Program-made: the position numbers and the translations under genes
In this document: positions 12,347 through 64,000 of the stretch, one piece after another
Position numbering within the stretch: position 1 is the stretch's first letter
Layout: each line of letters starts with the position of its first letter
Notes under the pieces: model-generated
Database searches by the model: none
What the model was told of the DNA's origin: nothing
Seen by the model: the letters and a program-made list of their open reading frames with translations, nothing else
From: a virus
Taxonomy: Duplodnaviria > Caudoviricetes
Virus record (IMG/VR): IMGVR_UViG_3300028601_000020
Reading direction: 5' to 3' (one strand)
Length of the DNA stretch: 64,000 bases

Positions 12347-15300
12347 ATGGCAATAAATTTCGAGAAAAATCCGTTTTTTGATGATTATAAGGAGTCAAAG
12401 AATTTTCACCGAATTCTTTACCGTCCATCTATTGCTGTTCAAGCAAGAGAGTTGACACAACAGCAGACCATTTTACAGAATCAAATTGCCCGTTTTGGTA
12501 ACCACATTTTCAAAAACGGAGCAATGGTCATTCCCGGTCAGATAACGTTTGACAACAAATACCATTATGTTAAAATAAATCAACTTTATGATTCGGAAGA
12601 AGTTGTATTAAGTAATTTTGTTGGTTCAAAAATCACTGGTTTGACTTCTGGGGTTATTGCGGAAGTCATTAATGCTGTTGATATTGAAGGAGATGATCCA
12701 AAAACACTTTATGTAAAATATATTCAATCAGGAATTTCCGATATTCAGACATTTCAAGATGGTGAAATTCTTCAACGAACGGATAATGCTCTTTTTGCAT
12801 GTCAAGTACAAGGATCCACTGACGTAACCTCATTTTCTTCTATCGGTATAGGTTCAGCATCGTCAATTGAAGCTGGTGTTTATTATATTGATGGTTTTTT
12901 TGTTAATGTTTACAAACAAACACTAATTCTTTCAAAATATTCAGACACTCCAACATGTAAAGTCGGATTGAGAAATTACGAAAGAATCATTACCCCAGAA
13001 GATGATCCGACGCTTAATGATAATGCTATTGGTTCGTATAACTATGCTGCTCCGGGTGCGTATCGGTATAAAATTGATCTATTACTTGAATACATCAACG
13101 TAAATGACGAAGTTCCTGAGGATTTTGTTGAATTACAACGAATTGAAGTTGGAACAATCATTAATGAAATCAGAACTTCAGAGTACAGTGAACTCGAAAA
13201 GACTTTTGCACGAAGGACCTATGACGAATCAGGAGACTATACAGTTTCTCCTTTTAATATTTCAATCAGAGAACATCTTAAAGATGAATCAATTCCTAGA
13301 TTTGCAGACGGTAAGTATCTTGCAACAGACTCTCCTTCTGGTGATGAATCAAAACTTGCAATTGGCATTGAGCCGGGCAAAGCATACGTTCGTGGTTACG
13401 AACGACAGAAATTAGCGACCACTTGGATTGAGACAAACAAAGCACGATCAACAGCAGTTTATAATAATGCCGTTTTGAACTTTAATATCGGGAATTATAT
13501 TTACGTCACACGGTGTTACATGATTCCTGATTGGTCAACATTTGAAACTCTTTATCTTTGGCATTCAGATCCTCTTCCATTAGACGGCAATATTCCAGCA
13601 TCAGGAACTCCTATTGGCACAGCAAGAGTCAGAGGGATTGAGTTAATTGATAACTCTGCTGGTGCCGCGCATGAAGAATACGTTTATAAACTGTATCTTT
13701 TTGATATTAACCTAAATGATGGTGAAACATGGAGTTCAGTATCATGGATCACGGATTCTAATTCTTCAGCACAATTTACTTGCACTCCTAATGTTGGTGG
13801 TGATTATGCAGATTTAGACAAAATGATTATCAATCCAACAAAAAAATCAAGTATCTTTAAACTTCCACACCAATATGTAAGAACACTCAAACCAAACGGA
13901 ATAAATGATACTTCATATACAGTAAACAGATATTATCCTTCTGTTCCTGTATCTTCTGAATCAATTGAAATTGACGTTGGAACCAATGCTGTTCCTAATG
14001 CATTCACAGGAAGAAACTATATTATTATGGACCTCGCTGCTTCAACTTCAGCGGCTTCTTTTGTTCCAATAAGCGACGGTGATGTAACCATTAACGGATC
14101 AGTTGTAACCATTACAGGTTTGACTGGACTTTCTGGATCAAATGTTAGTATTAGTTTGCCAATAGTGAAAACAATCTCAGCAGAAAGAACAAAGTCTATT
14201 ACTGAAATCACCCAAGTTATTTCATCCCCTAATACAGTGCCAGGTGAATTTGACGATTTATCAAGAGCAGACGGTTATAGATTGATTTCTGTAACTGATG
14301 GCGGTGATTCTGATAGAGATATCACCGAACGATATTTATTTGATAATGGACAAAGGGATTCATTTTATGATCTTTCACGAATTCAATTAAAATCAGGTTA
14401 TAGCGCACCAAAAGGAAGTCTCACAGTAACATTTTCGTTCTTTTCTCATACAACTGGCGATTTCTGTTCTGTTGATTCTTACTCTTCTTTGGGCACTTCT
14501 TTAGATGAATATTATTATGACATTCCTGCATATTATTCAGAAGATGGACAATATGATCTTGCTGATTGTATTGACTTTAGACCAGTAATCAATTCAACCG
14601 GTAATTCATTTATAGGAACTGGTTCGCGTACATGCGAAATGCCTGTTGCGCTGTCAAATATTAGAATGGATTATGAACACTACTTGAGCCGTATTGACAA
14701 ACTTTACATTGATTACACTGGAAGATTTGGTATTATTGAAGGTAATCCAGATGTTTATCCTTCTCCTCCTAAATCTCCTTCTGACGGCATGGTTCTTTAT
14801 GAAATCTTCATGACTGCATACACATATTCTCCGAAAAATGCAAAACCAAAGTTTATTGACAATAAGCGTTACACAATGAGAGATATTGGCCGTCTTGAAA
14901 AGCGAATTAGTAATCTTGAATATTATACTTCGTTGTCATTGCTTGAAAAAGAAACCGCTCAAATGCAAATCAAAGATGTTTCTGGTTTTGAAAGATTTAA
15001 AAATGGTTTCTTGGTTGAACCATTTAAGTCTCATGGTATTGGCGATTCTTTGAATCCTGATTATCGTTGTTCAATTGATCCAAGATTGGAACAAATGAGA
15101 TCAACCTTTTCAACTGATTCAGTGAATCTTGAATTTGACGAAACAAATTCAACCACTGTTCAAAAAACAGGGCCGCTTGTCACGCTTCCTTATACCTCTG
15201 TGCCTTTCATTTCTCAAACTTTAGCAAGTATGACAGAGAATGTCAACCCTTTTGCTATTCGTTTGTTTGAGGGGAAAGTAAATTTTCAGCCTGATTCAGA

Positions 15301-18064
15301 TAATTGGTACGACACGAAGAAAAACGGCGATTTGATTGTAAATGATGATGCTCATTTCCAAGCACTTGAATTCATCGCAACTTACGGTGAAGGACTTAAT
15401 GGAATTTCTTGGAATGATTGGGAAACAACGTGGTCAAGTTCATCAACTCAGGTTACTTCAAACACAAGTCGTGAAATTGACAGAACAAGAGATCATGATA
15501 CAGAAAAGCAAGTTAGAGCAATTATTACTGCAACAGCTACAACCACAACAACCGCAAAACAAACACGTTCTGGCACAAAAACAACTTTCTCTGAGGAAAC
15601 AATTAACAAATTCCTTGGAGATAGAACAGTAGGAATAAATTATATTCCTTACATGAGAAGTATTCCTGTTCTAGTTAAAGTTGAAGCAATGAAACCGTCA
15701 ACTGTTGTTTATCCTTTCTTTGATGATATTAATGTTTCGGCGCACTGTACTCCTGCAATTCGCATTCCTATTACCGGCAAAACTGGTTCATTCTTGACGG
15801 CAGTAGGCAAAGAAGAAACTATTACTACATCAGGCAACGGATCTGCAATTGTAGTTTTTGAGTCTGATACTGAATTAACAATCGTCAATTGGAACCAATC
15901 AGCTTTCACTGATGGACAAGTTGTTACAGGATCCACTTCAGGAGCAACAGCAACACTGGCTGATAGTGCAAATATCCTTGCAACTACAGCAGGAGATGAA
16001 TTAAAGACTGACGAAAAAGGAAGAATTTCTCTTATTTTCAAAATTCCTAATAATGACAATCTGAAATTTAGAACTGGCGAAAGAAAGTTTATCCTTAATG
16101 ATCAACAGAACAATGCAGAAGCGAACCAAACAAAAGCAGAAGGATTTTTCAAGTCCCTTGGTTCAATGCTTCAGCAAGAAGGAACTGTTCTTTCAACAAA
16201 GACTATTAGATTTAACCGTGAACCGCTCAATCAACAAAGAACTGTTAGATCAACCACTTCAACAACCACGACAAGTGCAACTGAATGGTATGATCCTCTT
16301 GCACAAACTTTCCTTGTTCAAGAGGAAGGTGGTTGTTTTGTAACGTCATGTTATCTGTATTTTCAGAAAAAAGATGCTTCTGGTTTACCTATTACATTTC
16401 AAATTCGTGAAGTTGTAAATGGATATCCCGGTCAAACCATTGTTCCATATTCAGAAGTAACACTTTATCCCGAAGATGTTAATGACACACCCGAAGGAGA
16501 ATTAGCAACCATATTTGAAATGCAAGCTCCGGTATTTTTGCAACAGGGAGTTGAATATTGCTTTGTTCTCTTGTCTGATTCATTTGATTATAATGTCTGG
16601 ATTGCAAACATGGGCCAGCTTGATATTAGAACAAAACAAATGATTTCAAAACAACCTTATAATGGTGTTCTATTTAAATCACAAAATGCTTCAACTTGGA
16701 CAGCAAATCAAGATCAAGACATGAAGTTTATCTTGAATAAAGCAAGATTCCAAATTGAAACCGCTGAAGGTTCTGGTATTCCTTATATTGGTCAAGCATT
16801 TTTCAATAATCAAGAACTTACAACTGATATTCTTGATATTAATTCAATTGAAACTTTCATTGATTCAACAAAGGTCAGAGTTCACCAGTTCGCACATGGT
16901 TTTGTTGAAAATTCAAAAGTAACATTAAGTGGATTCAGCGAATTATCTACATATAATGGAATTCCCGGATCAGAATTGAATGGATCGTTTTTGATTGATA
17001 GCATTGAATTTGATTCTTATCAAATTGAAGTGATTACCCCAGCAACTGATACTGGATTGACGGGTGGATTAGGAATTGAAGCGACAAGAAACATTCAAAT
17101 GGATGTTCTTCGCCCGAACATTTCGGAACTCGTTCTGCCTGGGTCGTCTTCTCTTTGGGGCTCAAAGACAACAACCAAAGATTATTCAATTGTTCCTATT
17201 GGTTCGTATTCTGGATTGAGTATTGTTGAAAATAACTTCATGAAAGAATCAATGAGAATTTGTTCTTATGAGAATGAATCTTTCAATTTAAGCAACGAAA
17301 AATCACTTCAATTGATAAATATCATAAACAGCACAAACAGGAACATTTCTCCTGTTGTAGATATGAATAGATGTTCTGTCATTACTGTTGCGAATAGAAT
17401 TGATAATCACACTACACAAACAGCCAATTTTAATTGTTCTGTAACTATAAATGAATCTTTATTAACTATTACGCATTCCGAACATGGTATGGCAACAGGA
17501 GCGGCTATTTATATTGATTCAGACGTAACAATTGGTGGTGTTTCTACTTCCTCACTGACTGGTTATTATACAATATCTCGAATTGACGATAATTCATATT
17601 TTGTTGATGTCAATGAAAATGCAACTTCAACGGCGTCTGGTACAATCAGTGTAACATGGTGTAACACACAATACAAATATATTCCTGAGAATTTTGCTCA
17701 AGGTGGAACTGCTATTTCAAAATATCAGACTAAAAAAGTAACAGTTGAAGAACCCGCGATTGCAGTAAAAGTCTTAGTAACTGCGGTGGTCATGAATGGT
17801 TCAGACATTGAACTTTGGTATAAAAAACAAGGTCCGTATGATACTTCACGTTTTGCTGATCTTGAATGGAGCCTCTTGGGCGACCCTGATATATTTGTTC
17901 CTGTTTCTGAAAATGAAGAGGATTTCAAAGAATATGAATTCACAAGAGAATTTGAAGACGGAGAAGAATTCACTTCGTTTGCAATCAAAATTGTTTCAAA
18001 ATCTTCAAGTACAACCATTGTTCCTATAATTGATGATTTGCGAATCATTTGCTTAGGAACCTGA
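12347..18064 (+). CDS. large virion structural protein, VrlC/DUF4815-like
   Basis: 1905 aa; 'PFFDDY....FHRILYRP..VQARELTQQQTILQNQI', 'ARRTYDESGDY', 'DNKRYTMRDIGRLEKRI', 'DPLAQTF'. Confidence 0.85.
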   Translation: MAINFEKNPFFDDYKESKNFHRILYRPSIAVQARELTQQQTILQNQIARFGNHIFKNGAMVIPGQITFDNKYHYVKINQLYDSEEVVLSNFVGSKITGLTSGVIAEVINAVDIEGDDPKTLYVKYIQSGISDIQTFQDGEILQRTDNALFACQVQGSTDVTSFSSIGIGSASSIEAGVYYIDGFFVNVYKQTLILSKYSDTPTCKVGLRNYERIITPEDDPTLNDNAIGSYNYAAPGAYRYKIDLLLEYINVNDEVPEDFVELQRIEVGTIINEIRTSEYSELEKTFARRTYDESGDYTVSPFNISIREHLKDESIPRFADGKYLATDSPSGDESKLAIGIEPGKAYVRGYERQKLATTWIETNKARSTAVYNNAVLNFNIGNYIYVTRCYMIPDWSTFETLYLWHSDPLPLDGNIPASGTPIGTARVRGIELIDNSAGAAHEEYVYKLYLFDINLNDGETWSSVSWITDSNSSAQFTCTPNVGGDYADLDKMIINPTKKSSIFKLPHQYVRTLKPNGINDTSYTVNRYYPSVPVSSESIEIDVGTNAVPNAFTGRNYIIMDLAASTSAASFVPISDGDVTINGSVVTITGLTGLSGSNVSISLPIVKTISAERTKSITEITQVISSPNTVPGEFDDLSRADGYRLISVTDGGDSDRDITERYLFDNGQRDSFYDLSRIQLKSGYSAPKGSLTVTFSFFSHTTGDFCSVDSYSSLGTSLDEYYYDIPAYYSEDGQYDLADCIDFRPVINSTGNSFIGTGSRTCEMPVALSNIRMDYEHYLSRIDKLYIDYTGRFGIIEGNPDVYPSPPKSPSDGMVLYEIFMTAYTYSPKNAKPKFIDNKRYTMRDIGRLEKRISNLEYYTSLSLLEKETAQMQIKDVSGFERFKNGFLVEPFKSHGIGDSLNPDYRCSIDPRLEQMRSTFSTDSVNLEFDETNSTTVQKTGPLVTLPYTSVPFISQTLASMTENVNPFAIRLFEGKVNFQPDSDNWYDTKKNGDLIVNDDAHFQALEFIATYGEGLNGISWNDWETTWSSSSTQVTSNTSREIDRTRDHDTEKQVRAIITATATTTTTAKQTRSGTKTTFSEETINKFLGDRTVGINYIPYMRSIPVLVKVEAMKPSTVVYPFFDDINVSAHCTPAIRIPITGKTGSFLTAVGKEETITTSGNGSAIVVFESDTELTIVNWNQSAFTDGQVVTGSTSGATATLADSANILATTAGDELKTDEKGRISLIFKIPNNDNLKFRTGERKFILNDQQNNAEANQTKAEGFFKSLGSMLQQEGTVLSTKTIRFNREPLNQQRTVRSTTSTTTTSATEWYDPLAQTFLVQEEGGCFVTSCYLYFQKKDASGLPITFQIREVVNGYPGQTIVPYSEVTLYPEDVNDTPEGELATIFEMQAPVFLQQGVEYCFVLLSDSFDYNVWIANMGQLDIRTKQMISKQPYNGVLFKSQNASTWTANQDQDMKFILNKARFQIETAEGSGIPYIGQAFFNNQELTTDILDINSIETFIDSTKVRVHQFAHGFVENSKVTLSGFSELSTYNGIPGSELNGSFLIDSIEFDSYQIEVITPATDTGLTGGLGIEATRNIQMDVLRPNISELVLPGSSSLWGSKTTTKDYSIVPIGSYSGLSIVENNFMKESMRICSYENESFNLSNEKSLQLINIINSTNRNISPVVDMNRCSVITVANRIDNHTTQTANFNCSVTINESLLTITHSEHGMATGAAIYIDSDVTIGGVSTSSLTGYYTISRIDDNSYFVDVNENATSTASGTISVTWCNTQYKYIPENFAQGGTAISKYQTKKVTVEEPAIAVKVLVTAVVMNGSDIELWYKKQGPYDTSRFADLEWSLLGDPDIFVPVSENEEDFKEYEFTREFEDGEEFTSFAIKIVSKSSSTTIVPIIDDLRIICLGT

Positions 18065-26669: not shown

Positions 26670-26709
26670 AAAGAAAGGTTCAAAAATAATGTTGAAAAAG
26701 GAGAAAGGA

Positions 26710-40426: not shown

Positions 40427-40452
40427 TTGAAATAAACGATAAATAATGATAT

Positions 40453-48664: not shown

Positions 48665-48685
48665 TTGATTACAATTTCTGTGAAG

Positions 48686-48693
48686 TATAAATA
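48686..48693 (+). promoter_or_regulatory. T4-type late promoter
   Basis: TATAAATA upstream of gp22. Confidence 0.8.
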
Positions 48694-48771
48694 ATAGTAG
48701 AAAAATAAGACTGTTAGTAATTTGCAATTTGCTAATAAAAAATAAAATTTTGAACACAATAGGAGTACCAT

Positions 48772-49650
48772 ATGTCAGTTCTGGAAACAATCAAAAAAAA
48801 GTTGCAGGAATCGCTGGACGAAGAAAAACTTGCTATTCTTGAAGCAGTAGAGGTTGAACTTACTGAAGAAGAAATGGAAGGACTGTCAGAGGAAGAGATT
48901 GCTGCTCTGATTGAAGCAAAGAAAAAGGAAATGAAGGAAGAAGATGACGAAGAGGATGATGATGACGATGATGAAGAAATTGATGTAAAAGAGTCCTTAG
49001 CAAAAATCTTTGAAGGCGCAAAAATTGATGAAAAGGTAAAATCTGACCTTGAAACTCTTTTTAATGCCGTTGTAGCCGAAAAGGTTATTCGTAAGTGTGA
49101 TGAACTTTCGGACAAATACGAAAGTGAACTTGAAGAGGCTCTTGAGAAAATTGAAGAATCCATTGACAAATATATTTCTTATGTTGCTGATGAATGGATG
49201 AACGAGAATGAGCTTGCAGTAGAAAAAGGCATTCGTCAAGAAATTTCTGAAAACGTTCTTGCTGGTATTCGGAATCTGTTCGTTGAGAATTACATTGATG
49301 TTCCAGAGGAAAAAATTGATCTGGTTGCAGAGGCAGAAGATACTATTGAAGAACTTACCAGCAAACTTGACGAAACCACAAACACAATTCTTTCTCTCAA
49401 GAAAGAAATTGATGAAATGAAAACGGAAAAAATCGTCAATGAACTTGCTACAGAGTTGACTGAAACAGAAAAAGAAAAACTTTCTGACCTTATTTCTGAA
49501 TTCAAATATGAAGACGATTCAAGCTATAAAGAAAAGGTTTCTCTTGTCATTGAAAAATATTTTGGTAAGCCCGAGGATAAAGAAAAGATTGATGAAAGCA
49601 AGATTGATGACCGTATGAAACTGTACATTAATCATTTCAAAAAGAAGTAA
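48772..49650 (+). CDS. gp22: prohead core scaffold protein gp22
   Basis: Very acidic; 'YISYVADEWMNENELAVEKGIR', 'LFVENYIDVPEEK'. Confidence 0.93.
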   Translation: MSVLETIKKKLQESLDEEKLAILEAVEVELTEEEMEGLSEEEIAALIEAKKKEMKEEDDEEDDDDDDEEIDVKESLAKIFEGAKIDEKVKSDLETLFNAVVAEKVIRKCDELSDKYESELEEALEKIEESIDKYISYVADEWMNENELAVEKGIRQEISENVLAGIRNLFVENYIDVPEEKIDLVAEAEDTIEELTSKLDETTNTILSLKKEIDEMKTEKIVNELATELTETEKEKLSDLISEFKYEDDSSYKEKVSLVIEKYFGKPEDKEKIDESKIDDRMKLYINHFKKK

Positions 49651-49763: not shown

Positions 49764-51062
49764 ATGTCTGTTTACACAAACAATGTTGGTTTTGAAGAAC
49801 TTTCGGAAAAGTGGAATCCTATTCTTGAAGCAGAGTCAGAGACTCCGATTAAGGATGATTGGAAGAAGAAAGTAACTCTTCGTATGCTTGAGAATCAGGA
49901 AAAAGCAATGATCACTGAGGCTCCTACTAACGTCACTGGTGGCGTTGACAAATGGGATCCAGTTCTCATTTCAATGATTCGTAGAAATGCTCCGAAAATG
50001 ATCGCTTTTGACATTTTTGGTGTTCAGCCAATGTCCGGTCCTACTGGACTTATCTTTGCGATTCGTTCGCGTTATGTAGACGGGGACAAAGATCAGGCGG
50101 GTCCTGAAGCATTCTTTGATGAAGCAAATTCTGGCTTCGCTGGTGTTCGTTCTGACATGACCACTGCTGCATCTACTCCTACATGGACTGGTAATAGTGG
50201 CGGTACTCCTGACGGTACTTTGACTGATCCGACTTCTGTTGATTACGGTTATGGTACTGGTATGACAACTGCTGCTGCTGAATTGCTTGGTTCTACTAAT
50301 GCATGGAACGAGATGGCATTCAGCATTGAGAAAAGTTCTGTAACTGCTACTTCACGCGCATTGAAGGCAACTTGGACCCATGAACTGTCACAAGACCTTA
50401 AAGCGATTCATGGACTGGATGCTGATGCTGAACTTACCAATATTCTGTCTACTGAACTTCTGTCAGAAATCAACCGTGAACTTGTTCGTCGGTGCTACGT
50501 TCTTGCAAAACAGGGTGCATTGATCACTTCTGGTACAACCACAAACGGTGTATACGATCTTGACACTGACTCAAACGGTCGTTGGTCGGTTGAACGTTTC
50601 AAGGGTCTTATGTTCCAGATTGAAAAAGAAGCAAACCTTATTGCTATTCAGACTCGGCGCGGTAAAGGTAACTTCCTTATCGTTTCTGCTGATATCGCTT
50701 CCGCTCTTGCAATGACTGGTCTGCTTGACACTGGTAAGGGTTCTGATTATATGTCTCCGAACATCGTTGATCCTACTGGTATGACTTATATCGGTATGCT
50801 GAATGGTCGCACTAAGGTATTCATTGATCCTTATACTTCAATCAATTCTGTACTGGTTGGGTTCAAAGGATCAAATCAGTATGATGCTGGTGCTTTCTAT
50901 TGTCCTTACGTTCCATTCACTCTTTACAAGTCTCAGGGTCAGGATGACTTCCAGCCACGAATCGGCTTCAAGACTCGTTTTGGTTTTGCTGCTAACCCAT
51001 TCGGTGGCGGTATTGGAGCGAATCCTTACTTCCGTCTGTTCAAGGTTACAAACCTCGGTTAA
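49764..51062 (+). CDS. gp23: major capsid protein gp23
   Basis: 'GVQPMSGPTGLIFAIRSRY', 'EMAFSIEK', 'ELSQDLKAIHGLDADAEL.NILSTE', 'FYCPYVP', 'FQPRIGFKTR'. Confidence 0.98.
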   Translation: MSVYTNNVGFEELSEKWNPILEAESETPIKDDWKKKVTLRMLENQEKAMITEAPTNVTGGVDKWDPVLISMIRRNAPKMIAFDIFGVQPMSGPTGLIFAIRSRYVDGDKDQAGPEAFFDEANSGFAGVRSDMTTAASTPTWTGNSGGTPDGTLTDPTSVDYGYGTGMTTAAAELLGSTNAWNEMAFSIEKSSVTATSRALKATWTHELSQDLKAIHGLDADAELTNILSTELLSEINRELVRRCYVLAKQGALITSGTTTNGVYDLDTDSNGRWSVERFKGLMFQIEKEANLIAIQTRRGKGNFLIVSADIASALAMTGLLDTGKGSDYMSPNIVDPTGMTYIGMLNGRTKVFIDPYTSINSVLVGFKGSNQYDAGAFYCPYVPFTLYKSQGQDDFQPRIGFKTRFGFAANPFGGGIGANPYFRLFKVTNLG

Positions 51063-51067
51063 TTTTA

Positions 51068-51096
51068 TTGACAAAAATTAACCTTTGAAGTATGCT
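51068..51096 (+). promoter_or_regulatory. sigma70-like promoter abutting the gp23 terminator
   Basis: TTGACA-17 nt-TATGCT. Confidence 0.5.
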
Positions 51097-51128
51097 AAGA
51101 GGGTTGGGTAAAACCAACCCTCTTTTTT
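51097..51128 (+). terminator. intrinsic terminator after gp23
   Basis: AAGAGGGTTGG / CCAACCCTCTT stem followed by a T tract. Confidence 0.88.
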
Positions 51129-51181
51129 GTTGTAAAATTTTGCATGGATATCCAACATGATTTTTTGTAATTTTTCAAAAG

Positions 51182-51189
51182 TATAAATA
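51182..51189 (+). promoter_or_regulatory. T4-type late promoter
   Basis: TATAAATA with no ORF before the next terminator. Confidence 0.75.
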
Positions 51190-51192
51190 ATA

Positions 51193-51266
51193 GTATAATA
51201 ATGATCATTATGCAGTTTCTCCTTTCTCCTTGCGGGACCGGTCCTCCTTCCGGTCCCGCATTTTTT
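51193..51266 (+). ncRNA. candidate small RNA with three anti-Shine-Dalgarno (CUCCU) motifs
   Basis: Late promoter, then TTTCTCCTTTCTCCT, then 11-bp GC stem TGCGGGACCGG/CCGGTCCCGCA with loop TCCTCCTT and T6. Confidence 0.6.
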
Positions 51267-51314
51267 GTTTGACTTCCAAGATAAATACATATATATTGTG
51301 CGAATAGTTTAACA

Positions 51315-51620
51315 ATGTACCCCATAAGGAGTCCCATGAAAGAAATCATAACAACCTTGGATATTTTCGGAAAATTTGAAGAATACGAAGAGGATAGATC
51401 CATAGAATCGGGTATGTTTCAACTAAGTGAATATTCTCTTTATAACGAAGATGACGGTAAAGTTTATATCACCGATGATCTTGGAAGAACTCTTGCGCTT
51501 TCATTTACAAATGGAGGGTATGTGATTAATGATCTCATGAAACACAAACAATATGACACGGTAACCGATGTGCTTGATATGCTTATTTCTGCTGACTTGG
51601 TTGCCCCAGGAGAAAATTAA
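51315..51620 (+). CDS. hypothetical protein
   Basis: ORF coupled to gp3; AAGGAG precedes the second Met, so the start may be later. Confidence 0.65.
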   Translation: MYPIRSPMKEIITTLDIFGKFEEYEEDRSIESGMFQLSEYSLYNEDDGKVYITDDLGRTLALSFTNGGYVINDLMKHKQYDTVTDVLDMLISADLVAPGEN

Positions 51621-52141
51621 TGCCAGATTTAGATTTAGGTAAAAAATTAAATATCACAAAAGACGCAAATTTTCATTTCGGTATTCCAGAATTACCGTTA
51701 TTCTCTCTGTTCTGTCAAACTCTTGATCTTCCAAGTGTAACTCTAGGGGTTGCAGAACAGCCAACTCCTTTGGTTGAAGTGAAGCATCCCGGAGATAAAA
51801 TTGTCTTTGAGGATCTTATGGTTTCGTTTCTTGTAGACGAAGAATTAACAAATTATCTTGAAGTTTTCAAGTGGATAATGCACTTAGGATATCCAAGAAG
51901 CACTGCACAGTATAGAAAACTTGTTCAACAAGATACTGTTTACACGCGAAAGCATGAATTACAATGTTCATTATTGACAAATAAAATGAATTTTAGACAG
52001 AGGGTTGTTTTTGTTGGTGCTTTTCCAACAAATCTTTCAACTTTGCCATTTATGACAAACAATGAAGGAGTTGGGCATTTAACTGCAACAGTAACTTTTG
52101 CCTACGATTATTTTTATTTTGAAAAAGACACGACGATTTAG
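51620..52141 (+). CDS. gp3: tail completion / tube terminator gp3-like
   Basis: 'FCQTLDLPSVTLG', 'PGDKIVFEDL.V.FLVDEELTNY.EVFKW', 'FPTNLS', 'ATVTFAY'. Confidence 0.85.
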   Translation: MPDLDLGKKLNITKDANFHFGIPELPLFSLFCQTLDLPSVTLGVAEQPTPLVEVKHPGDKIVFEDLMVSFLVDEELTNYLEVFKWIMHLGYPRSTAQYRKLVQQDTVYTRKHELQCSLLTNKMNFRQRVVFVGAFPTNLSTLPFMTNNEGVGHLTATVTFAYDYFYFEKDTTI

Positions 52142-53356: not shown

Positions 53357-53429
53357 GCTATACCTCGAATATAGATGTTGGGGTTTAGGTTCGCAAGAGA
53401 ATTGGCGTTCTCTTGCGAACTGCTTTTTG

Positions 53430-53443
53430 TATAAGTATTTATA
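53430..53443. promoter_or_regulatory. overlapping divergent late promoters
   Basis: TATAAGTA (+, 53430-37) and TATAAATA (-, 53443-36). Confidence 0.55.
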
Positions 53444-53472
53444 CTTTTAACAATTTTAAACGGGATGAATGT

Positions 53473-59352: not shown

Positions 59353-60014
59353 GACTGACAAAGAACACCATGCAAATTTTGCAGAATTACACGATGATCA
59401 ATCCGAGTATTTTGATTGAACCCGGAAATGTTATCAGGACTGTTGATGCTGGAAAGACTGTTATTGGTCGGGCAGAAGTTGAAGAGAATTTTCCTCAGGA
59501 ATTTGCAATTTATGATCTTCCTAATTTTCTGCAAGTTATCAAGATGTTTGACGGAGCAGATATCCAGTTTGAAGATAATCACTGTTTAATCAAGTATGAT
59601 GATTCAAACACAATTGTCCGTTATATGTTCGCTGTTCCTGAAGCGGTTGAGACAGTAAAAAAAGATATTGTTATGCCGCAGACAGAAATCAATTTTCAAT
59701 TGACCGAATCACAGTTAGCCAGTATCATTAAAGCAGCAACCACAATGTCTTTGAATCAGTTGGTTATTTCTCCGGACGAAAATGCGGTTATTCTGACTGT
59801 AACGGATATTGATAATTCGCACTCGAATAACTTCCGTATCAAGGTTCAAGCTGAACTTGAAATCACTGATTTTGATGTGGTAATTGAAATGTCCAAACTT
59901 GTGAATCTCTTTCCTGGATCGTATAACGTAGGAATTTCGTCTAAAAAACTTTCCCACTTTCTTGGTGATAATCTTCAGTATTGGGTTGCTTTGAATACAA
60001 ACAGCAAATTTTGA
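59349..60014 (+). CDS. gp45: sliding clamp gp45
   Basis: 'L.NY..INPSI...GN..RT', 'FAIYDL..FL', 'YWVAL'. Confidence 0.93.
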   Translation: MRLTKNTMQILQNYTMINPSILIEPGNVIRTVDAGKTVIGRAEVEENFPQEFAIYDLPNFLQVIKMFDGADIQFEDNHCLIKYDDSNTIVRYMFAVPEAVETVKKDIVMPQTEINFQLTESQLASIIKAATTMSLNQLVISPDENAVILTVTDIDNSHSNNFRIKVQAELEITDFDVVIEMSKLVNLFPGSYNVGISSKKLSHFLGDNLQYWVALNTNSKF

Positions 60015-60027
60015 TTAAGGAATAAAT

Positions 60028-60984
60028 ATGGCTGAATTGAACGAAGACCTTAAAAATATGCTATGGGAGGAAAAATACAGACCACAGACGGTGGACGACT
60101 GTATTCTTCCTAAAAAAACAAAGGCGTATTTCATTAAACAGCGTGATACTGGATCAGTTAATAACATGTTGCTTGCTGGCTCTCATGGAGTCGGCAAGAC
60201 GACAGTTGCACGGGCACTATGTAACGAACTGAAAGCCGATGTTCTGTTCATGAACTGTTCTAAGGATAACTCAGTTGAAGACGTTCGGACAAAGATCAAT
60301 TCATTTGCCTCTTCAATGTCTTTGACTGGAAACGCAAGAGTGTTTATTGGAGACGAGTTTGATTATGTAAGCCCGAACGGACAAGCAGCATTGCGTGGGC
60401 TTATTGAGCAGACAAGCAATTCTTGTCGGTTTATCTTCACTTGTAACTATCTTCACAAGATTATTGATCCGCTTAAATCGTCAAGGCTTGACGTTGTAGA
60501 TTTCAAAATTGCACCGAAAGACAAACCGGATTTGGCTATGCAGTTCATGAATCGTTGTATGATGATTCTTGATTCTGAAAAAATCAAATACGACAAGAAA
60601 ACTCTTGCGTTGCTTATTCAAAAAAACTATCCTGATTATAGAAAGACACTGAAGCAACTTCAGAAGTCGGCAATGATAATCGGTGAAATTAACGAAGAGA
60701 TTTTTTACCAAGAAAACGTTGAAATTACTGATTACATTAAAGCACTAAAGGCAAAAGATTACAAAACAGCCAGAAAGTGGATTGGAGAAACGTTTATTTC
60801 TCCCGAGGATTTCTTTTCTATTCTGTTTAAGAATATTACGCTAATTGTCAAAGACGATTCTCTTGCACAAGCAATTTTGACGCTTAATGATTATCAATAC
60901 AAACATGCCTTCGCAATTGATCCTGAACTCAATTTGTCTGCATTGACTGTACAGTTAATGGCTCAATGTAACATGAGGGACTGA
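60028..60984 (+). CDS. gp44: clamp loader large subunit gp44
   Basis: 'LWEEKYRPQTVDDCILP', 'GSHGVGKTT', 'DEFD', 'CRFIFTCNY'. Confidence 0.95.
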   Translation: MAELNEDLKNMLWEEKYRPQTVDDCILPKKTKAYFIKQRDTGSVNNMLLAGSHGVGKTTVARALCNELKADVLFMNCSKDNSVEDVRTKINSFASSMSLTGNARVFIGDEFDYVSPNGQAALRGLIEQTSNSCRFIFTCNYLHKIIDPLKSSRLDVVDFKIAPKDKPDLAMQFMNRCMMILDSEKIKYDKKTLALLIQKNYPDYRKTLKQLQKSAMIIGEINEEIFYQENVEITDYIKALKAKDYKTARKWIGETFISPEDFFSILFKNITLIVKDDSLAQAILTLNDYQYKHAFAIDPELNLSALTVQLMAQCNMRD

Positions 60985-60985
60985 T

Positions 60986-61246
60986 ATGGAAAAAGCGAAA
61001 AGATTTTGCGCTGTTCTTTCGGCTCTCATGGAAGGGAAAACCCTTAAAAAAAGAAATGGACAGTTATATTATATCAAATGGCAATATGGGGTTCCAATAA
61101 TATATGCGTTTATGCGTAAATCTGACCATGGTAGTATTCTTTCGTATATGGTCAGTTCATCATTAGATGAATTGTATCCTTTTCTTTCTGAGGAGAATTC
61201 TGTTATAATTGATTCTTCTATTGAAGATATAGTAAAAGATGAATAA
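60986..61246 (+). CDS. hypothetical protein inserted between gp44 and gp62
   Basis: GAGG RBS, coupled on both sides. Confidence 0.6.
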   Translation: MEKAKRFCAVLSALMEGKTLKKRNGQLYYIKWQYGVPIIYAFMRKSDHGSILSYMVSSSLDELYPFLSEENSVIIDSSIEDIVKDE

Positions 61247-61670
61247 ACAAAAGAACGATAGCAAGACGATATGGGACTATATAAATATGATTTCTTCATC
61301 AAAAGAATTTCCTGATTTTAATGAAGAATTTAATAAAGTGTACTCTCCATTTGTTGTGAATAGATTTTTTTCATTGACAGGTGAAGCGAATATCATTATA
61401 ATTAATGAAATCAACAAAATGCCTCAAATTGGCAAAAAAGAACATTTTTTATTTCTTCATTCTGTGGTACCTAAATCAAGACGGAGAAATTCTTGGCCTA
61501 AACGAAAAAAAGACGAAAAAATTGAATTGTTGATGGAGGTGTTCCAATGTAAATATGAAAACGCAAAATCGTTTGTTGACTTAATCAAAGAAGAGGATTA
61601 TACGAAAATTGTAGCCTTGACCGACAAAGGCGGGGCTGATGTTATCAAAAAAAGAAAGAGGAAAAGTTAA
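61239..61670 (+). CDS. gp62: clamp loader small subunit gp62
   Basis: 'YSPFVVNRFFS', 'NEINK', 'DKGG'; synteny. Confidence 0.88.
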   Translation: MNKQKNDSKTIWDYINMISSSKEFPDFNEEFNKVYSPFVVNRFFSLTGEANIIIINEINKMPQIGKKEHFLFLHSVVPKSRRRNSWPKRKKDEKIELLMEVFQCKYENAKSFVDLIKEEDYTKIVALTDKGGADVIKKRKRKS

Positions 61671-61673
61671 AAC

Positions 61674-62099
61674 ATGAAGAAAATTAAAATGAGTACCGAA
61701 CAGTGGTTTGATCAGGCAATTGAAATTCTTCTTCCTGAAGACGATTCGTTTCTGATTGTCAAGGAAACGCTCACCCGAATTGGTATTGCGTCAATGAAGG
61801 AAGGTCAGAAACGCCTTGCACAGACATGCCATATTCTCCAGAAGCGTGGAAAGTTTTATATCGTTCATTTCAAGGAACTGTTGCTGCTTGACGGAAAAGA
61901 GGCGAACTTTTCTGAAGAGGATGCTATGCGCCGCAACACCATTGCTCAGATGCTTGAAGATTGGGGACTTGTAGAAGTGGTTGATATTGACAAGATTCAG
62001 GATCAGTTGAAACATTCCTCTGTCAAGGTCGTTCCGTTTAAAGAAAAAGATAAGTGGGAACTTGTTCCCAAGTACAATATTGGCGGACGCAAGAATTAA
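61674..62099 (+). CDS. regA: translational repressor RegA
   Basis: 'FLIVKETLTRIGIAS', 'CHILQKRGKFYIVHFKEL..LDGK', 'RRNTIA..L.DWGL', 'W.LVPKYNIG'. Confidence 0.96.
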   Translation: MKKIKMSTEQWFDQAIEILLPEDDSFLIVKETLTRIGIASMKEGQKRLAQTCHILQKRGKFYIVHFKELLLLDGKEANFSEEDAMRRNTIAQMLEDWGLVEVVDIDKIQDQLKHSSVKVVPFKEKDKWELVPKYNIGGRKN

Positions 62100-62124
62100 T
62101 TTTTGATTTTTGAAAGGAGAAGCA

Positions 62125-62673
62125 ATGCATATTAATATAAAAATTGTTCCTGTCGGTAATGCTGAATTCGTTGTTCCAGAAGTTCAAACCGCCGAATCCG
62201 CTTGTGCTGATGTTGCTGTTTGTCTAAATCATGTTGATAAAGTGAAAATGTACGATTCTGATAACAATGAATATTTTCAGCCAGTAGAAAATCGTGATGG
62301 GGTGATGATGTTTGTTATTCTTCGCCCTAATCATCGGGCATTGATTCCTACAGGAATGCGATTTATTATCAAGCATGGTTTTCAGTTCAAAATGATTCCT
62401 CGGAGCGGTCTTTCTCTGAAGCACGGGGTGACTCTTATTAATTCTCCAGGCACTATTGATTCTGATTACACGAATGAAACCATGATCCTTCTTCATAATA
62501 CATCAAATGTTCCGTTTATATGCTCCCATCATGAGCGTGTTGCACAACTGGAACTTCGGGAAAATACAATGCGAAATATGTTTTTCAGTAGCGGAACGGA
62601 AGAAGAAATTGAGAAACACAAAGCATCGTCAAACAGGAAAGGTGGGTTTGGTTCTACAGGACGAAAAGCCTAA
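62125..62673 (+). CDS. dut: trimeric dUTPase
   Basis: 'SACAD', 'PRSGL..K.G', 'NSPGTIDSDY', 'RVAQ', 'RKGGFGSTG'; AAGGAG RBS before ATG 62125. Confidence 0.95.
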   Translation: MHINIKIVPVGNAEFVVPEVQTAESACADVAVCLNHVDKVKMYDSDNNEYFQPVENRDGVMMFVILRPNHRALIPTGMRFIIKHGFQFKMIPRSGLSLKHGVTLINSPGTIDSDYTNETMILLHNTSNVPFICSHHERVAQLELRENTMRNMFFSSGTEEEIEKHKASSNRKGGFGSTGRKA

Positions 62674-62700
62674 ATCGTAAAACTTTTTTGTGATTTTTGA

Positions 62701-62736
62701 AAAGAGGACAGAGATTCGTTTCTGCCCTCTTTTTTT
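62701..62736 (+). terminator. intrinsic terminator after dut
   Basis: AAAGAGGACAGAGA / TTTCTGCCCTCTTT stem followed by a T tract. Confidence 0.75.
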
Positions 62737-62737
62737 A

Positions 62738-62766
62738 TTTACAAGTACGATAATTTATAGTATTGT
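62738..62766 (+). promoter_or_regulatory. sigma70-like early promoter
   Basis: TTTACA-17 nt-TATTGT followed by ATTCTTGAAAGTGAG. Confidence 0.5.
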
Positions 62767-62813
62767 ATTCTTGAAAGTGAGCGTAAACATAAAATTTTGA
62801 TGAAGGAGAAAAA

Positions 62814-63011
62814 ATGAAGCCCAAATATGACATTTCTGTGCAGTTGATTGGTGAGAACGGTAATGCATTTTATATTATCGGAAAGGTTCGCAAAGAAATG
62901 AAGCGAAACGGTGTTCCTAATAATGAAATTGATTTGTTCATAAACGAAGCAATGTCAGGAGATTACAATAACCTTCTCCGTACTTGCATGAAATATGTCA
63001 ACGTTGAATAA
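62814..63011 (+). CDS. conserved small phage hypothetical protein
   Basis: 'VQLIGENGNAF.IIG.V...M...G......F..EAMSGDYNNLL'; AAGGAG RBS. Confidence 0.8.
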   Translation: MKPKYDISVQLIGENGNAFYIIGKVRKEMKRNGVPNNEIDLFINEAMSGDYNNLLRTCMKYVNVE

Positions 63012-63021
63012 GGAGAAAAAT

Positions 63022-64000
63022 ATGGTTCATATAGTTCAAGGTATCCATGATTGTAATTTTGTCATGACAGATGGGGATCCTACAAACGCAAAATGTATTG
63101 TTTGTGGGAAATCCATTCTTGCTGATGTTGTTCTTCCGCCTCCGAAGGAAGAAAAAGAACTTCAGTTCATGAAGTATCCAAGCATTGAAAACACTTATCG
63201 TGTAAAGACAATTCAAGAGATTGAAAAGCAAGGTCTTAACAGTGGGGTTTGGGTTGCGACAAACAAACTTCATGGATCTAATTTTCAAGTATGTGCCGAT
63301 GCCGAAAAGGTGAAGTTTGCAAAGCGAACTTCATTTATTGAAGAGAATGAGAATTTTTATGGGCTGCATTCAAATCTTTCTAATATGAAAGCATTTCTCG
63401 TTGATCGTATCAAGAGAATGCAGAACTATTTTGGAGAAACCCTGAATGTTTTCTTTGAAATTTATGGTGGTAGTTATCCACATCCTGATGTAAAGAAATT
63501 TCCTGTATCAAGAATTCAAAAAGGCGTATGGTATACTCCATCTGTTGATATCAGGGTGATTGATGTTGCTGTGGATTTTGAGTTTTTGCCGTTTGATGAA
63601 ATGTCAGCAATAGTAAAACACTATAACCTCAAACCGGCAATGGAACTTCATCGTGGATCGTTCAAAGAAATGATTGATCTTGATCCTGTTTTTGAAGATC
63701 CTACTTATAAAGAATATAATCTTCCGCCACTCGAAAATAACTATTCTGAAGGGCTGGTTATTCGTCCTGTTGAAGAAAAAATGTTTGGCAACGGAAGTCG
63801 GGTTATGATCAAAAAGAAAAACCCTAAATTCTCAGAAAAACAACGATCGCCAAAAGTTCACAAACAACCATTGGTGCTTGCTGAAAACGTCAAAGAAATT
63901 TATGAAGAACTTTCACAATCAATTACTGAAAATCGGTTGAGGAATATTCTTTCACACGGAGAAGAAATCACAAACAAAGACTTTGGTAAACTTCAAGGAA
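63022..64000 (+). CDS. rnlB: RNA ligase 2 (Rnl2 family), runs off window end
   Basis: Hand translation: 'FMKYPSIEN', motif I 'KLHGSN', 'AKRT', 'FEIYGGSYPHP', 'IQKGVWY', 'SEGLVIRP', 'IKKKNPKFSE'. Confidence 0.88.
   Translation, partial: MVHIVQGIHDCNFVMTDGDPTNAKCIVCGKSILADVVLPPPKEEKELQFMKYPSIENTYRVKTIQEIEKQGLNSGVWVATNKLHGSNFQVCADAEKVKFAKRTSFIEENENFYGLHSNLSNMKAFLVDRIKRMQNYFGETLNVFFEIYGGSYPHPDVKKFPVSRIQKGVWYTPSVDIRVIDVAVDFEFLPFDEMSAIVKHYNLKPAMELHRGSFKEMIDLDPVFEDPTYKEYNLPPLENNYSEGLVIRPVEEKMFGNGSRVMIKKKNPKFSEKQRSPKVHKQPLVLAENVKEIYEELSQSITENRLRNILSHGEEITNKDFGKLQG

Follow-up and report, generated by a model that had tools for sequence, protein, structure and literature searches.

Trans-acting small RNAs of the RsaE/RoxS and LhrC type, which occur in Firmicutes, carry C/U-rich seeds that bind Shine-Dalgarno (SD) sites. 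A related concept of a trans-acting RNA is the c4 RNA of phages P1 and P7 (PMC12197685). In phage T4, the RegB protein cuts GGAG and the RegA protein binds translation initiation regions (PMC3014915, PMC1702504), and the genes e, soc, 49 and I-TevI are subject to transcript-specific occlusion of their ribosome-binding sites, or RBSs (PMC3014915). According to the T4 reviews, no trans-acting sRNA has been characterised in this phage (PMC3014915), and a trans-acting RNA in one of its relatives would therefore matter. T4-type phages also contain PeSLs, composite cassettes made of a terminator and an early promoter (Arbiol et al. 2010, PMC2839356; Comeau et al. 2014, PMC4122927).

The locus studied here belongs to an uncultured T4-like myovirus with 35% G+C, of which one stretch of 64,000 nucleotides (hereafter named the window) was analysed; all features lie on the plus strand unless otherwise indicated. 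The genes of the scaffold protein (48772-49650) and of the major capsid protein gp23 (49764-51062) are followed by a gap, by ORF94 (51336-51620), by a gp3-like tail protein gene (51620-52141; phrog_45, E 4e-31), by UvsY, by a GIY-YIG/NUMOD3 endonuclease encoded on the minus strand and by UvsW. The original prediction for this region had placed in the gap behind gp23 a stand-alone late unit, consisting of a late promoter, three CUCCU motifs, an 11-bp hairpin and a T6 run, and had assigned to its RNA the function of blocking RBSs in trans. All of these elements are present in the sequence at the positions it had named. The anatomy of a stand-alone unit held up, whereas the function of blocking RBSs in trans did not.

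Directly behind gp23 there is a first putative intrinsic terminator (51097-51130), formed by an 11-pair hairpin (51097-51124) plus a T run, and alignment to relatives identified positions 51142-51160 as the final 19 nt of a DUF559/Vsr-like gene of 212 aa. A TTGACA-17-TATGCT sequence, also kept in the related genome G001, was observed at positions 51068-51096, between the gp23 stop and the first terminator, with its -10-like hexamer abutting the hairpin; as the window shows no enrichment of sigma-70-like sites, this match is probably fortuitous. The T4-type late promoter motif TATAAATA follows at positions 51182-51189. Its extended context of 17 nt, AAGTATAAATAATAGTA (51179-51195), is identical to positions 48683-48699, located 86 nt before the scaffold gene (blastn-short, E 8.5e-4), and contexts of the same type precede gp23 and other late genes of the window. 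On the basis of this consensus sequence and structural-gene context, the motif at 51182-51189 is a credible late promoter.

A credible late promoter combined with a strong terminator makes a late RNA of ~72 nt reasonable to expect, and a pyrimidine-rich RNA of about this size (51195-51266) is probably made from the 51182 promoter. Its predicted 5' end was set by the spacing of T4 late promoters and its predicted 3' end by the T run. Folding of positions 51195-51266 gave one hairpin preceded by an unpaired 5' arm of 36 nt (-24.5 kcal/mol, z = -5.7). The very start of the predicted RNA contains a perfect palindrome of 14 nt, ATAATGATCATTAT (51198-51211), detected as a match to its own reverse complement, with GATC at its centre. 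This palindrome, which is largely kept in the relative L086 (IMGVR_UViG_3300039184_000103), might bind a protein or form a weak hairpin.

The hairpin at 51231-51260 has 11 pairs, nine of them G-C, and an 8-nt loop, UCCUCCUU, and is followed by T6 (the whole element spanning 51231-51266). Of the terminator-like hairpins in the 60 kb that were scanned, it ranked first and was the richest in G-C, and only four terminators with perfect stems were counted in the whole window; the ranking covered 60 kb, whereas the count of perfect stems and the blastn-short self-search covered all 64 kb, including positions 60001-64000. In the relative L087 the stem differs by A51237G plus T51254C, a compensatory change from A-U to G-C that represents a single event. 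The loop change C51243T in G001 keeps CUCCUU, and this genome has T5 in place of T6 and an A-to-G substitution at position 51210. With a G+C-rich stem, a U run and a compensatory change, the sequence at 51231-51266 fits an intrinsic (Rho-independent) terminator. A search of the unit against Rfam 15 returned no significant family, the best scores being 24-26 bits as compared with gathering thresholds of 50-52. The description of the unit as a stand-alone one, which the original prediction had put forward, is thus consistent with a consensus late promoter in structural-gene context, with a top-ranked terminator and with promoter-like sites of their own in front of the downstream genes. At a separate locus on the minus strand (53357-53445), TATAAATA at 53436 is followed by a hairpin of 14-15 pairs before the GIY-YIG/NUMOD3 gene, which makes this, next to the unit behind gp23, the second late promoter of the window that leads into a strong hairpin.

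The unit was found in only four contigs of IMG/VR, all of them close relatives, with ORF94 proteins 89-99% identical. Among metagenome contigs searched by ORF94 alignment, no unit was present beyond one of the same four contigs; scans of viral contigs with the tract, with the ORF94 protein as anchor and with the DUF559 gene as anchor recovered the same small lineage only, and two exact-pattern scans of a bacterial collection of 185,579 species genomes gave no match. The DNA of the window and that of G001 (locus L085) are about 91-96% identical in most shared blocks. Despite this closeness, the gap has three architectures among genomes whose ORF94 proteins are 98-99% identical, represented by L087, the window and L086. 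The gene of 212 aa (Pfam DUF559, E 1e-4; 881-1519 of locus L082) is intact between the first terminator and TATAAATA in G001, L084 and L087, and gone from the window except for the 19-nt remnant. Similarly, the first terminator is kept in G001, L084 and L087, and the 51182 promoter is present in the window, L084, L085 and L087. In L086 a 31-nt deletion between TAAT repeats has removed the late promoter, and the tract and the hairpin stand directly behind gp23. A palindrome without a T tail takes the place of the first terminator in this genome, so the tract and hairpin must act there as the terminator of gp23. This perfect palindrome, TTTTTAGGGCGAG-CGCAAAA-CTCGCCCTAAAAA, comes directly after the gp23 stop, and since an A run follows the stem on both strands it is not an intrinsic terminator in either direction. 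The next relative, L002 (75% gp23 identity), has a terminator and a sigma-70-like promoter in its gap, and lacks the unit. A gene in the L002 gap looks HNH-type endonuclease-like as judged by eye. From these layouts, endonuclease-type genes seem to use the gap between gp23 and gp3 as a landing site.

In the wider family, 63 loci with 50-55% gp23 identity were compared. A layout common among them comprises the gp23 stop, a terminator hairpin, TATAAATA soon after it, a short leader and the next late gene; roughly one half of the 63 loci have a TATAAATA no farther than ~100 nt from the gp23 stop, and gp3-uvsY comes after gp23 in most of the loci checked. Judged by its place in this layout, the promoter at 51182 corresponds to the late promoter that gp3 has in the wider family. 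We favour, tentatively and with a rough probability of 0.45, the explanation that the late promoter of gp3 has been orphaned and now fires into a terminator with an insulating role, the small RNA being a by-product. This places it above both the trans-acting sRNA and the masking of RBSs in cis that are considered below, each of which we regard as unlikely. According to this explanation, the unit would be a real non-coding pair of promoter and terminator in an indel-prone gap behind gp23, of which the constant, selected part would be the pyrimidine tract plus the hairpin, in the role of terminator or insulator. The hairpin would end late transcription coming from gp23, as the second terminator in the window and as the only one in L086, and would shield the ORF94-gp3-uvsY block, which has its own promoter-like sites just behind the hairpin. 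A cassette of tract, terminator, promoter and ORF94 would part the late promoter from gp3, an insertion history that we infer from the layout rather than from a donor sequence; with the cassette in this position, the promoter would fire into the terminator and yield the late RNA of ~72 nt as a by-product.

The orphaned promoter accounts for the layout, for the turnover by indels and for a promoter that is dispensable. In its favour are the confinement of ORF94 to this lineage, the three gap architectures, the small number of strong terminators and the compensatory change in the stem. The unit is identical to that of G001 at 82 of 85 positions (96.5%), which was judged no better than the adjoining blocks (94.5% and 90.7%) and was counted for the by-product reading as well.

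No Pfam or PHROG family was found for ORF94. Only three protein clusters, with 84-98% identity, correspond to it among 5.8 billion proteins, and it is absent between gp23 and gp3 in the wider relatives. Between the hairpin and ORF94, a sigma-70-like TTGACT-17-TATATT sequence (51269-51297) adjoins the terminator and is kept in all relatives. Sigma-70-like matches are not above shuffles window-wide, and the promoter call behind the hairpin is therefore weak. The sequence GATAAATA, a variant of the late motif, lies inside this site at 51280-51287; it occurs at 40438, 47911 and 51280, in each case 56-96 nt before a plus-strand gene, and two of the three sites share the context GATAAATAATGATAT. It may represent a variant form of the late promoter in which the first position is G. 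As it precedes late-type genes at 40438 and 47911 and is also found at 51280, gp3 does not have to rely on the 51182 promoter, in line with the loss of that promoter in L086.

This part of the locus resembles the PeSLs. Here too a stem-loop stands directly before a sigma-70-like promoter and an ORFan, at an indel-variable spot among close relatives, in the conserved core beside plastic, non-essential genes. PeSLs, however, are present as repeated, similar copies across the genome, whereas the hairpin-promoter pair studied here is single-copy in the 64 kb: neither a second copy nor any other strong hairpin-promoter pair was found in the window. The unit also differs from them in that its hairpin is preceded by a late promoter and by a pyrimidine tract.

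The position of a promoter-like site between the tract and ORF94 is also relevant for the possibility that the tract acts in cis. The CUCCUU motifs of a read-through RNA, begun at gp23 or at 51182, would in that case pair with the AAGGAG SD of ORF94 (51326-51331), and possibly with AGGAGAAA of gp3, and ORF94 and gp3 would be translated only from short transcripts begun at the promoter behind the hairpin. The SD of ORF94 is the exact complement of each CUCCUU, and the full AAGGAG is present in only about 8 of 74 genes, ORF94 among them. For each of the four sequence variants, among them G001, which carries an insertion of 48 nt, the minimum-energy fold of the long RNA pairs this SD with the tract (P(paired) ~1.0), whereas the SD is only weakly structured (P 0.5-0.7, -2 to -6.5 kcal/mol) in short RNAs that begin at 51290-51303. 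The tract, the hairpin, the promoter behind it and ORF94 are, in addition, linked in all five genomes. Nevertheless, the helix consists of no more than 6 bp, formed over a distance of 95-140 nt, and between its two strands lies a terminator that is expected to stop most transcripts. Shuffled leaders reached a mean P(paired) of 0.82, with values of at least 0.95 in 18% of them, and an RNA starting at 51267, free of the tract, also masks the SD (0.97). As in the T4 genes e, soc, 49 and I-TevI, a complement of the SD would be confined to the longer transcript that starts upstream, and a promoter would separate this complement from the RBS (PMC3014915). The known T4 cases, in contrast, use short local hairpins that silence early read-through so that the late transcripts are translated, while the pairing proposed for the window acts over a long range and across a terminator, and late read-through is what it would silence. 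Masking in cis would give the motifs a role but is doubtful.

The three CUCCU motifs that the original prediction had reported were found exactly at 51219, 51226 and 51244 (the last one in the loop). Each of them is part of a CTCCTT hexamer, and the three hexamers lie within 31 nt. The first two form the pyrimidine tract TTTCTCCTTTCTCCTT (51216-51231), in which a 7-nt unit is present twice as a result of one tandem duplication of TTTCTCC, and the third is contained in the loop of the hairpin. In the predicted fold all three are unpaired, two in the open 5' arm and one in the 8-nt loop. CTCCTT is found 24 times per strand in the 64 kb. Among 300 first-order Markov sequences simulated from the window, none contained three CTCCTT within 30 nt, and two within 30 nt were present in 13%. 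As one duplication produced two of the motifs, the cluster represents no fewer than two and no more than three independent events, and its true significance falls between the two corresponding estimates. The tract is identical in all five sequences, while the spacer just downstream varies, with the 48-nt insertion of G001. Three exposed CUCCUU, which are unlikely by composition alone, are left unexplained if the RNA is a by-product of the orphaned promoter, and the invariance of the tract next to a variable spacer also speaks against that reading. Elsewhere in the window, three CTCCT within 40 nt were observed just once, at 14763-14779, inside a gene for a protein of 1905 aa (12347-18064); such clusters therefore also arise in coding sequence.

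A trans-acting regulator would give these motifs a role. In that case, which we consider improbable, the late RNA of ~72 nt would mimic through its CUCCUU motifs the anti-SD of the 16S rRNA and occupy RBSs of the AAGGAG type in phage or host mRNAs late in infection. A more specific version, in which the mimic comes from its own late promoter or, in genomes of the L086 type, from the 3' UTR of the capsid mRNA, and titrates the AAGGAG RBSs of uvsW, dut, ORF94 and others, appears slightly less probable still. A consensus late promoter, a strong terminator and the absence of a conserved ORF are compatible with this function, as are motifs that are unpaired or in a loop and a triple motif that is rare by chance in the simulations. 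L086 lost the promoter together with the first terminator, and in this genome late transcription would continue to produce the tract, as the gp23 3' UTR. In addition, the niche is open in T4, for the reason given above (PMC3014915).

The complementarity to RBSs was examined in several ways. The five RBS complements quoted in the original prediction are exact in the sequence, but as evidence for targets they are at chance level or represent generic anti-SD pairing. Matches of 9-13 nt are expected by chance: those of 11-13 nt between the gap and the window had E values of 0.2-3 (blastn-short), and unrelated parts of the gap give matches that are equally long. The tract matches no non-self sequence over more than 13 nt, and this longest match (at 13254, minus strand) is not at an RBS. 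The best of the RBS matches, 12 nt at 26698, belongs to a late gene with its own late promoter and falls to 10 nt in G001. When the tract was paired with 74 predicted translation initiation regions (TIRs), the mean duplex energy was -7.87 kcal/mol, as compared with -7.82 kcal/mol for shuffled pyrimidine tracts, and the energies correlated (0.69-0.78) with those of plain 16S 3' tails. Only the number of very strong duplexes was raised: four TIRs (those of the 26710 gene, uvsW, the 59349 gene and dut) formed duplexes of -16 kcal/mol or below, against a mean of 0.95 with shuffled tracts, 1% of which reached four. This modest excess argues for a trans-acting RNA and against a by-product. Most structural genes use GAGG or AGGA sites, and no early-versus-late logic is apparent. 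With an invariant tract and with target RBSs that are conserved, as expected at such divergence, co-variation between the two is uninformative.

Further observations are unfavourable to a trans-acting RNA. Two of its motifs are the product of one slippage duplication, its promoter is dispensable in L086, and it matches no Rfam family. As for conservation downstream of gp23, to which the original prediction had also pointed, the tract is identical in the five close sequences but the unit is absent beyond about 10% divergence, L002 included. A scan with the pattern TATAAATA..CTCCTT..CTCCTT detected more than 118 stretches, and the 78 matches on new loci were read. No analogous terminator-bounded unit was present among the 78 matches listed. 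Outside the lineage of the phage itself (L084, L085), a loose hairpin test was passed among them only by the near-identical L104 and L128, in which the second CTCCTT lies in a stem, paired with the upstream sequence AAGGAGATAAG. About 25 of the listed matches represent one conserved stretch on contigs of ~50-100 kb from one metagenome (L102, L103, L106, L109 and ~20 more). A near-identical sequence of 39 nt, TATAAATAACAGGTTATAGTAGTCAGCTCCTTTCTCCTT, recurs in those contigs, nearly all of which come from IMG metagenome 3300045988; it is unrelated to the phage studied here and is probably coding or antisense to an RBS. Taken as computed from sequence, the RBS-blocking function was supported by none of the tests run.

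The unit shares with RsaE/RoxS, LhrC and c4 a short predicted RNA, an intrinsic terminator and several SD-complementary motifs, unpaired and in a loop. It differs from them in that its RNA is a predicted one and that neither homology (Rfam scores of 24-26 bits, below gathering) nor a specific target nor conservation of the seed across diverged relatives was seen. If it did act in trans, the outcome would be the same as with T4 RegB and RegA, namely an SD-directed shut-off of some phage messages; these, however, are proteins, as opposed to the predicted RNA of the window.

The remaining readings concern coding and the minus strand. The absence of an ORF from the unit, claimed in the original prediction, is correct for conserved ORFs; a frame of 23 codons (51201-51272) does exist, but it has no SD and is not kept in relatives. 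That this frame encodes a peptide, MIIMQFLLSPCGTGPPSGPAFFV, translated from a nearly leaderless late mRNA, is very improbable. The frame is open and its start lies ~7 nt from the predicted 5' end of the RNA; however, the T5 run of G001 shifts it into a read-through of 80 codons, three of the four substitutions in relatives would be non-synonymous, and the frame crosses the stem of the terminator. Even less credible is a function of the minus strand, either as a GGA-rich RNA resembling a CsrA sponge or as the RBS of a minus-strand gene (AAGGAGAAAGGAGAAAC, 6 nt, ATG). Three GGA motifs are found on this strand, including one in the loop of the hairpin, together with a hydrophobic frame of 37 codons that begins 10 nt past the second GGAG. 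Against this, there is no promoter-like site nearby, the hairpin lacks a T run in that direction, and the frame ends after 10 codons in G001 and differs in L086, in agreement with the original prediction, which had already regarded the antisense sponge as less likely. Both readings were rejected, as relatives do not preserve the frames and the minus strand lacks the corresponding signals.

If the RNA were shown to block RBSs, it would add an RNA layer on top of the protein-based translational shut-off of T4-type phages; it would be the RNA equivalent of the shut-off by RegA and RegB, and the T4 group would have its first regulatory RNA that acts in trans. With the orphaned gp3 promoter as the favoured explanation, the locus mainly illustrates what is already known, the effect of indel-prone gaps by core genes that are visited by endonuclease-like genes and ORFan cassettes. 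Such gaps can strand a promoter before a terminator and give rise to small transcripts that resemble designed sRNA genes, which calls for caution with candidates for anti-SD sRNAs.
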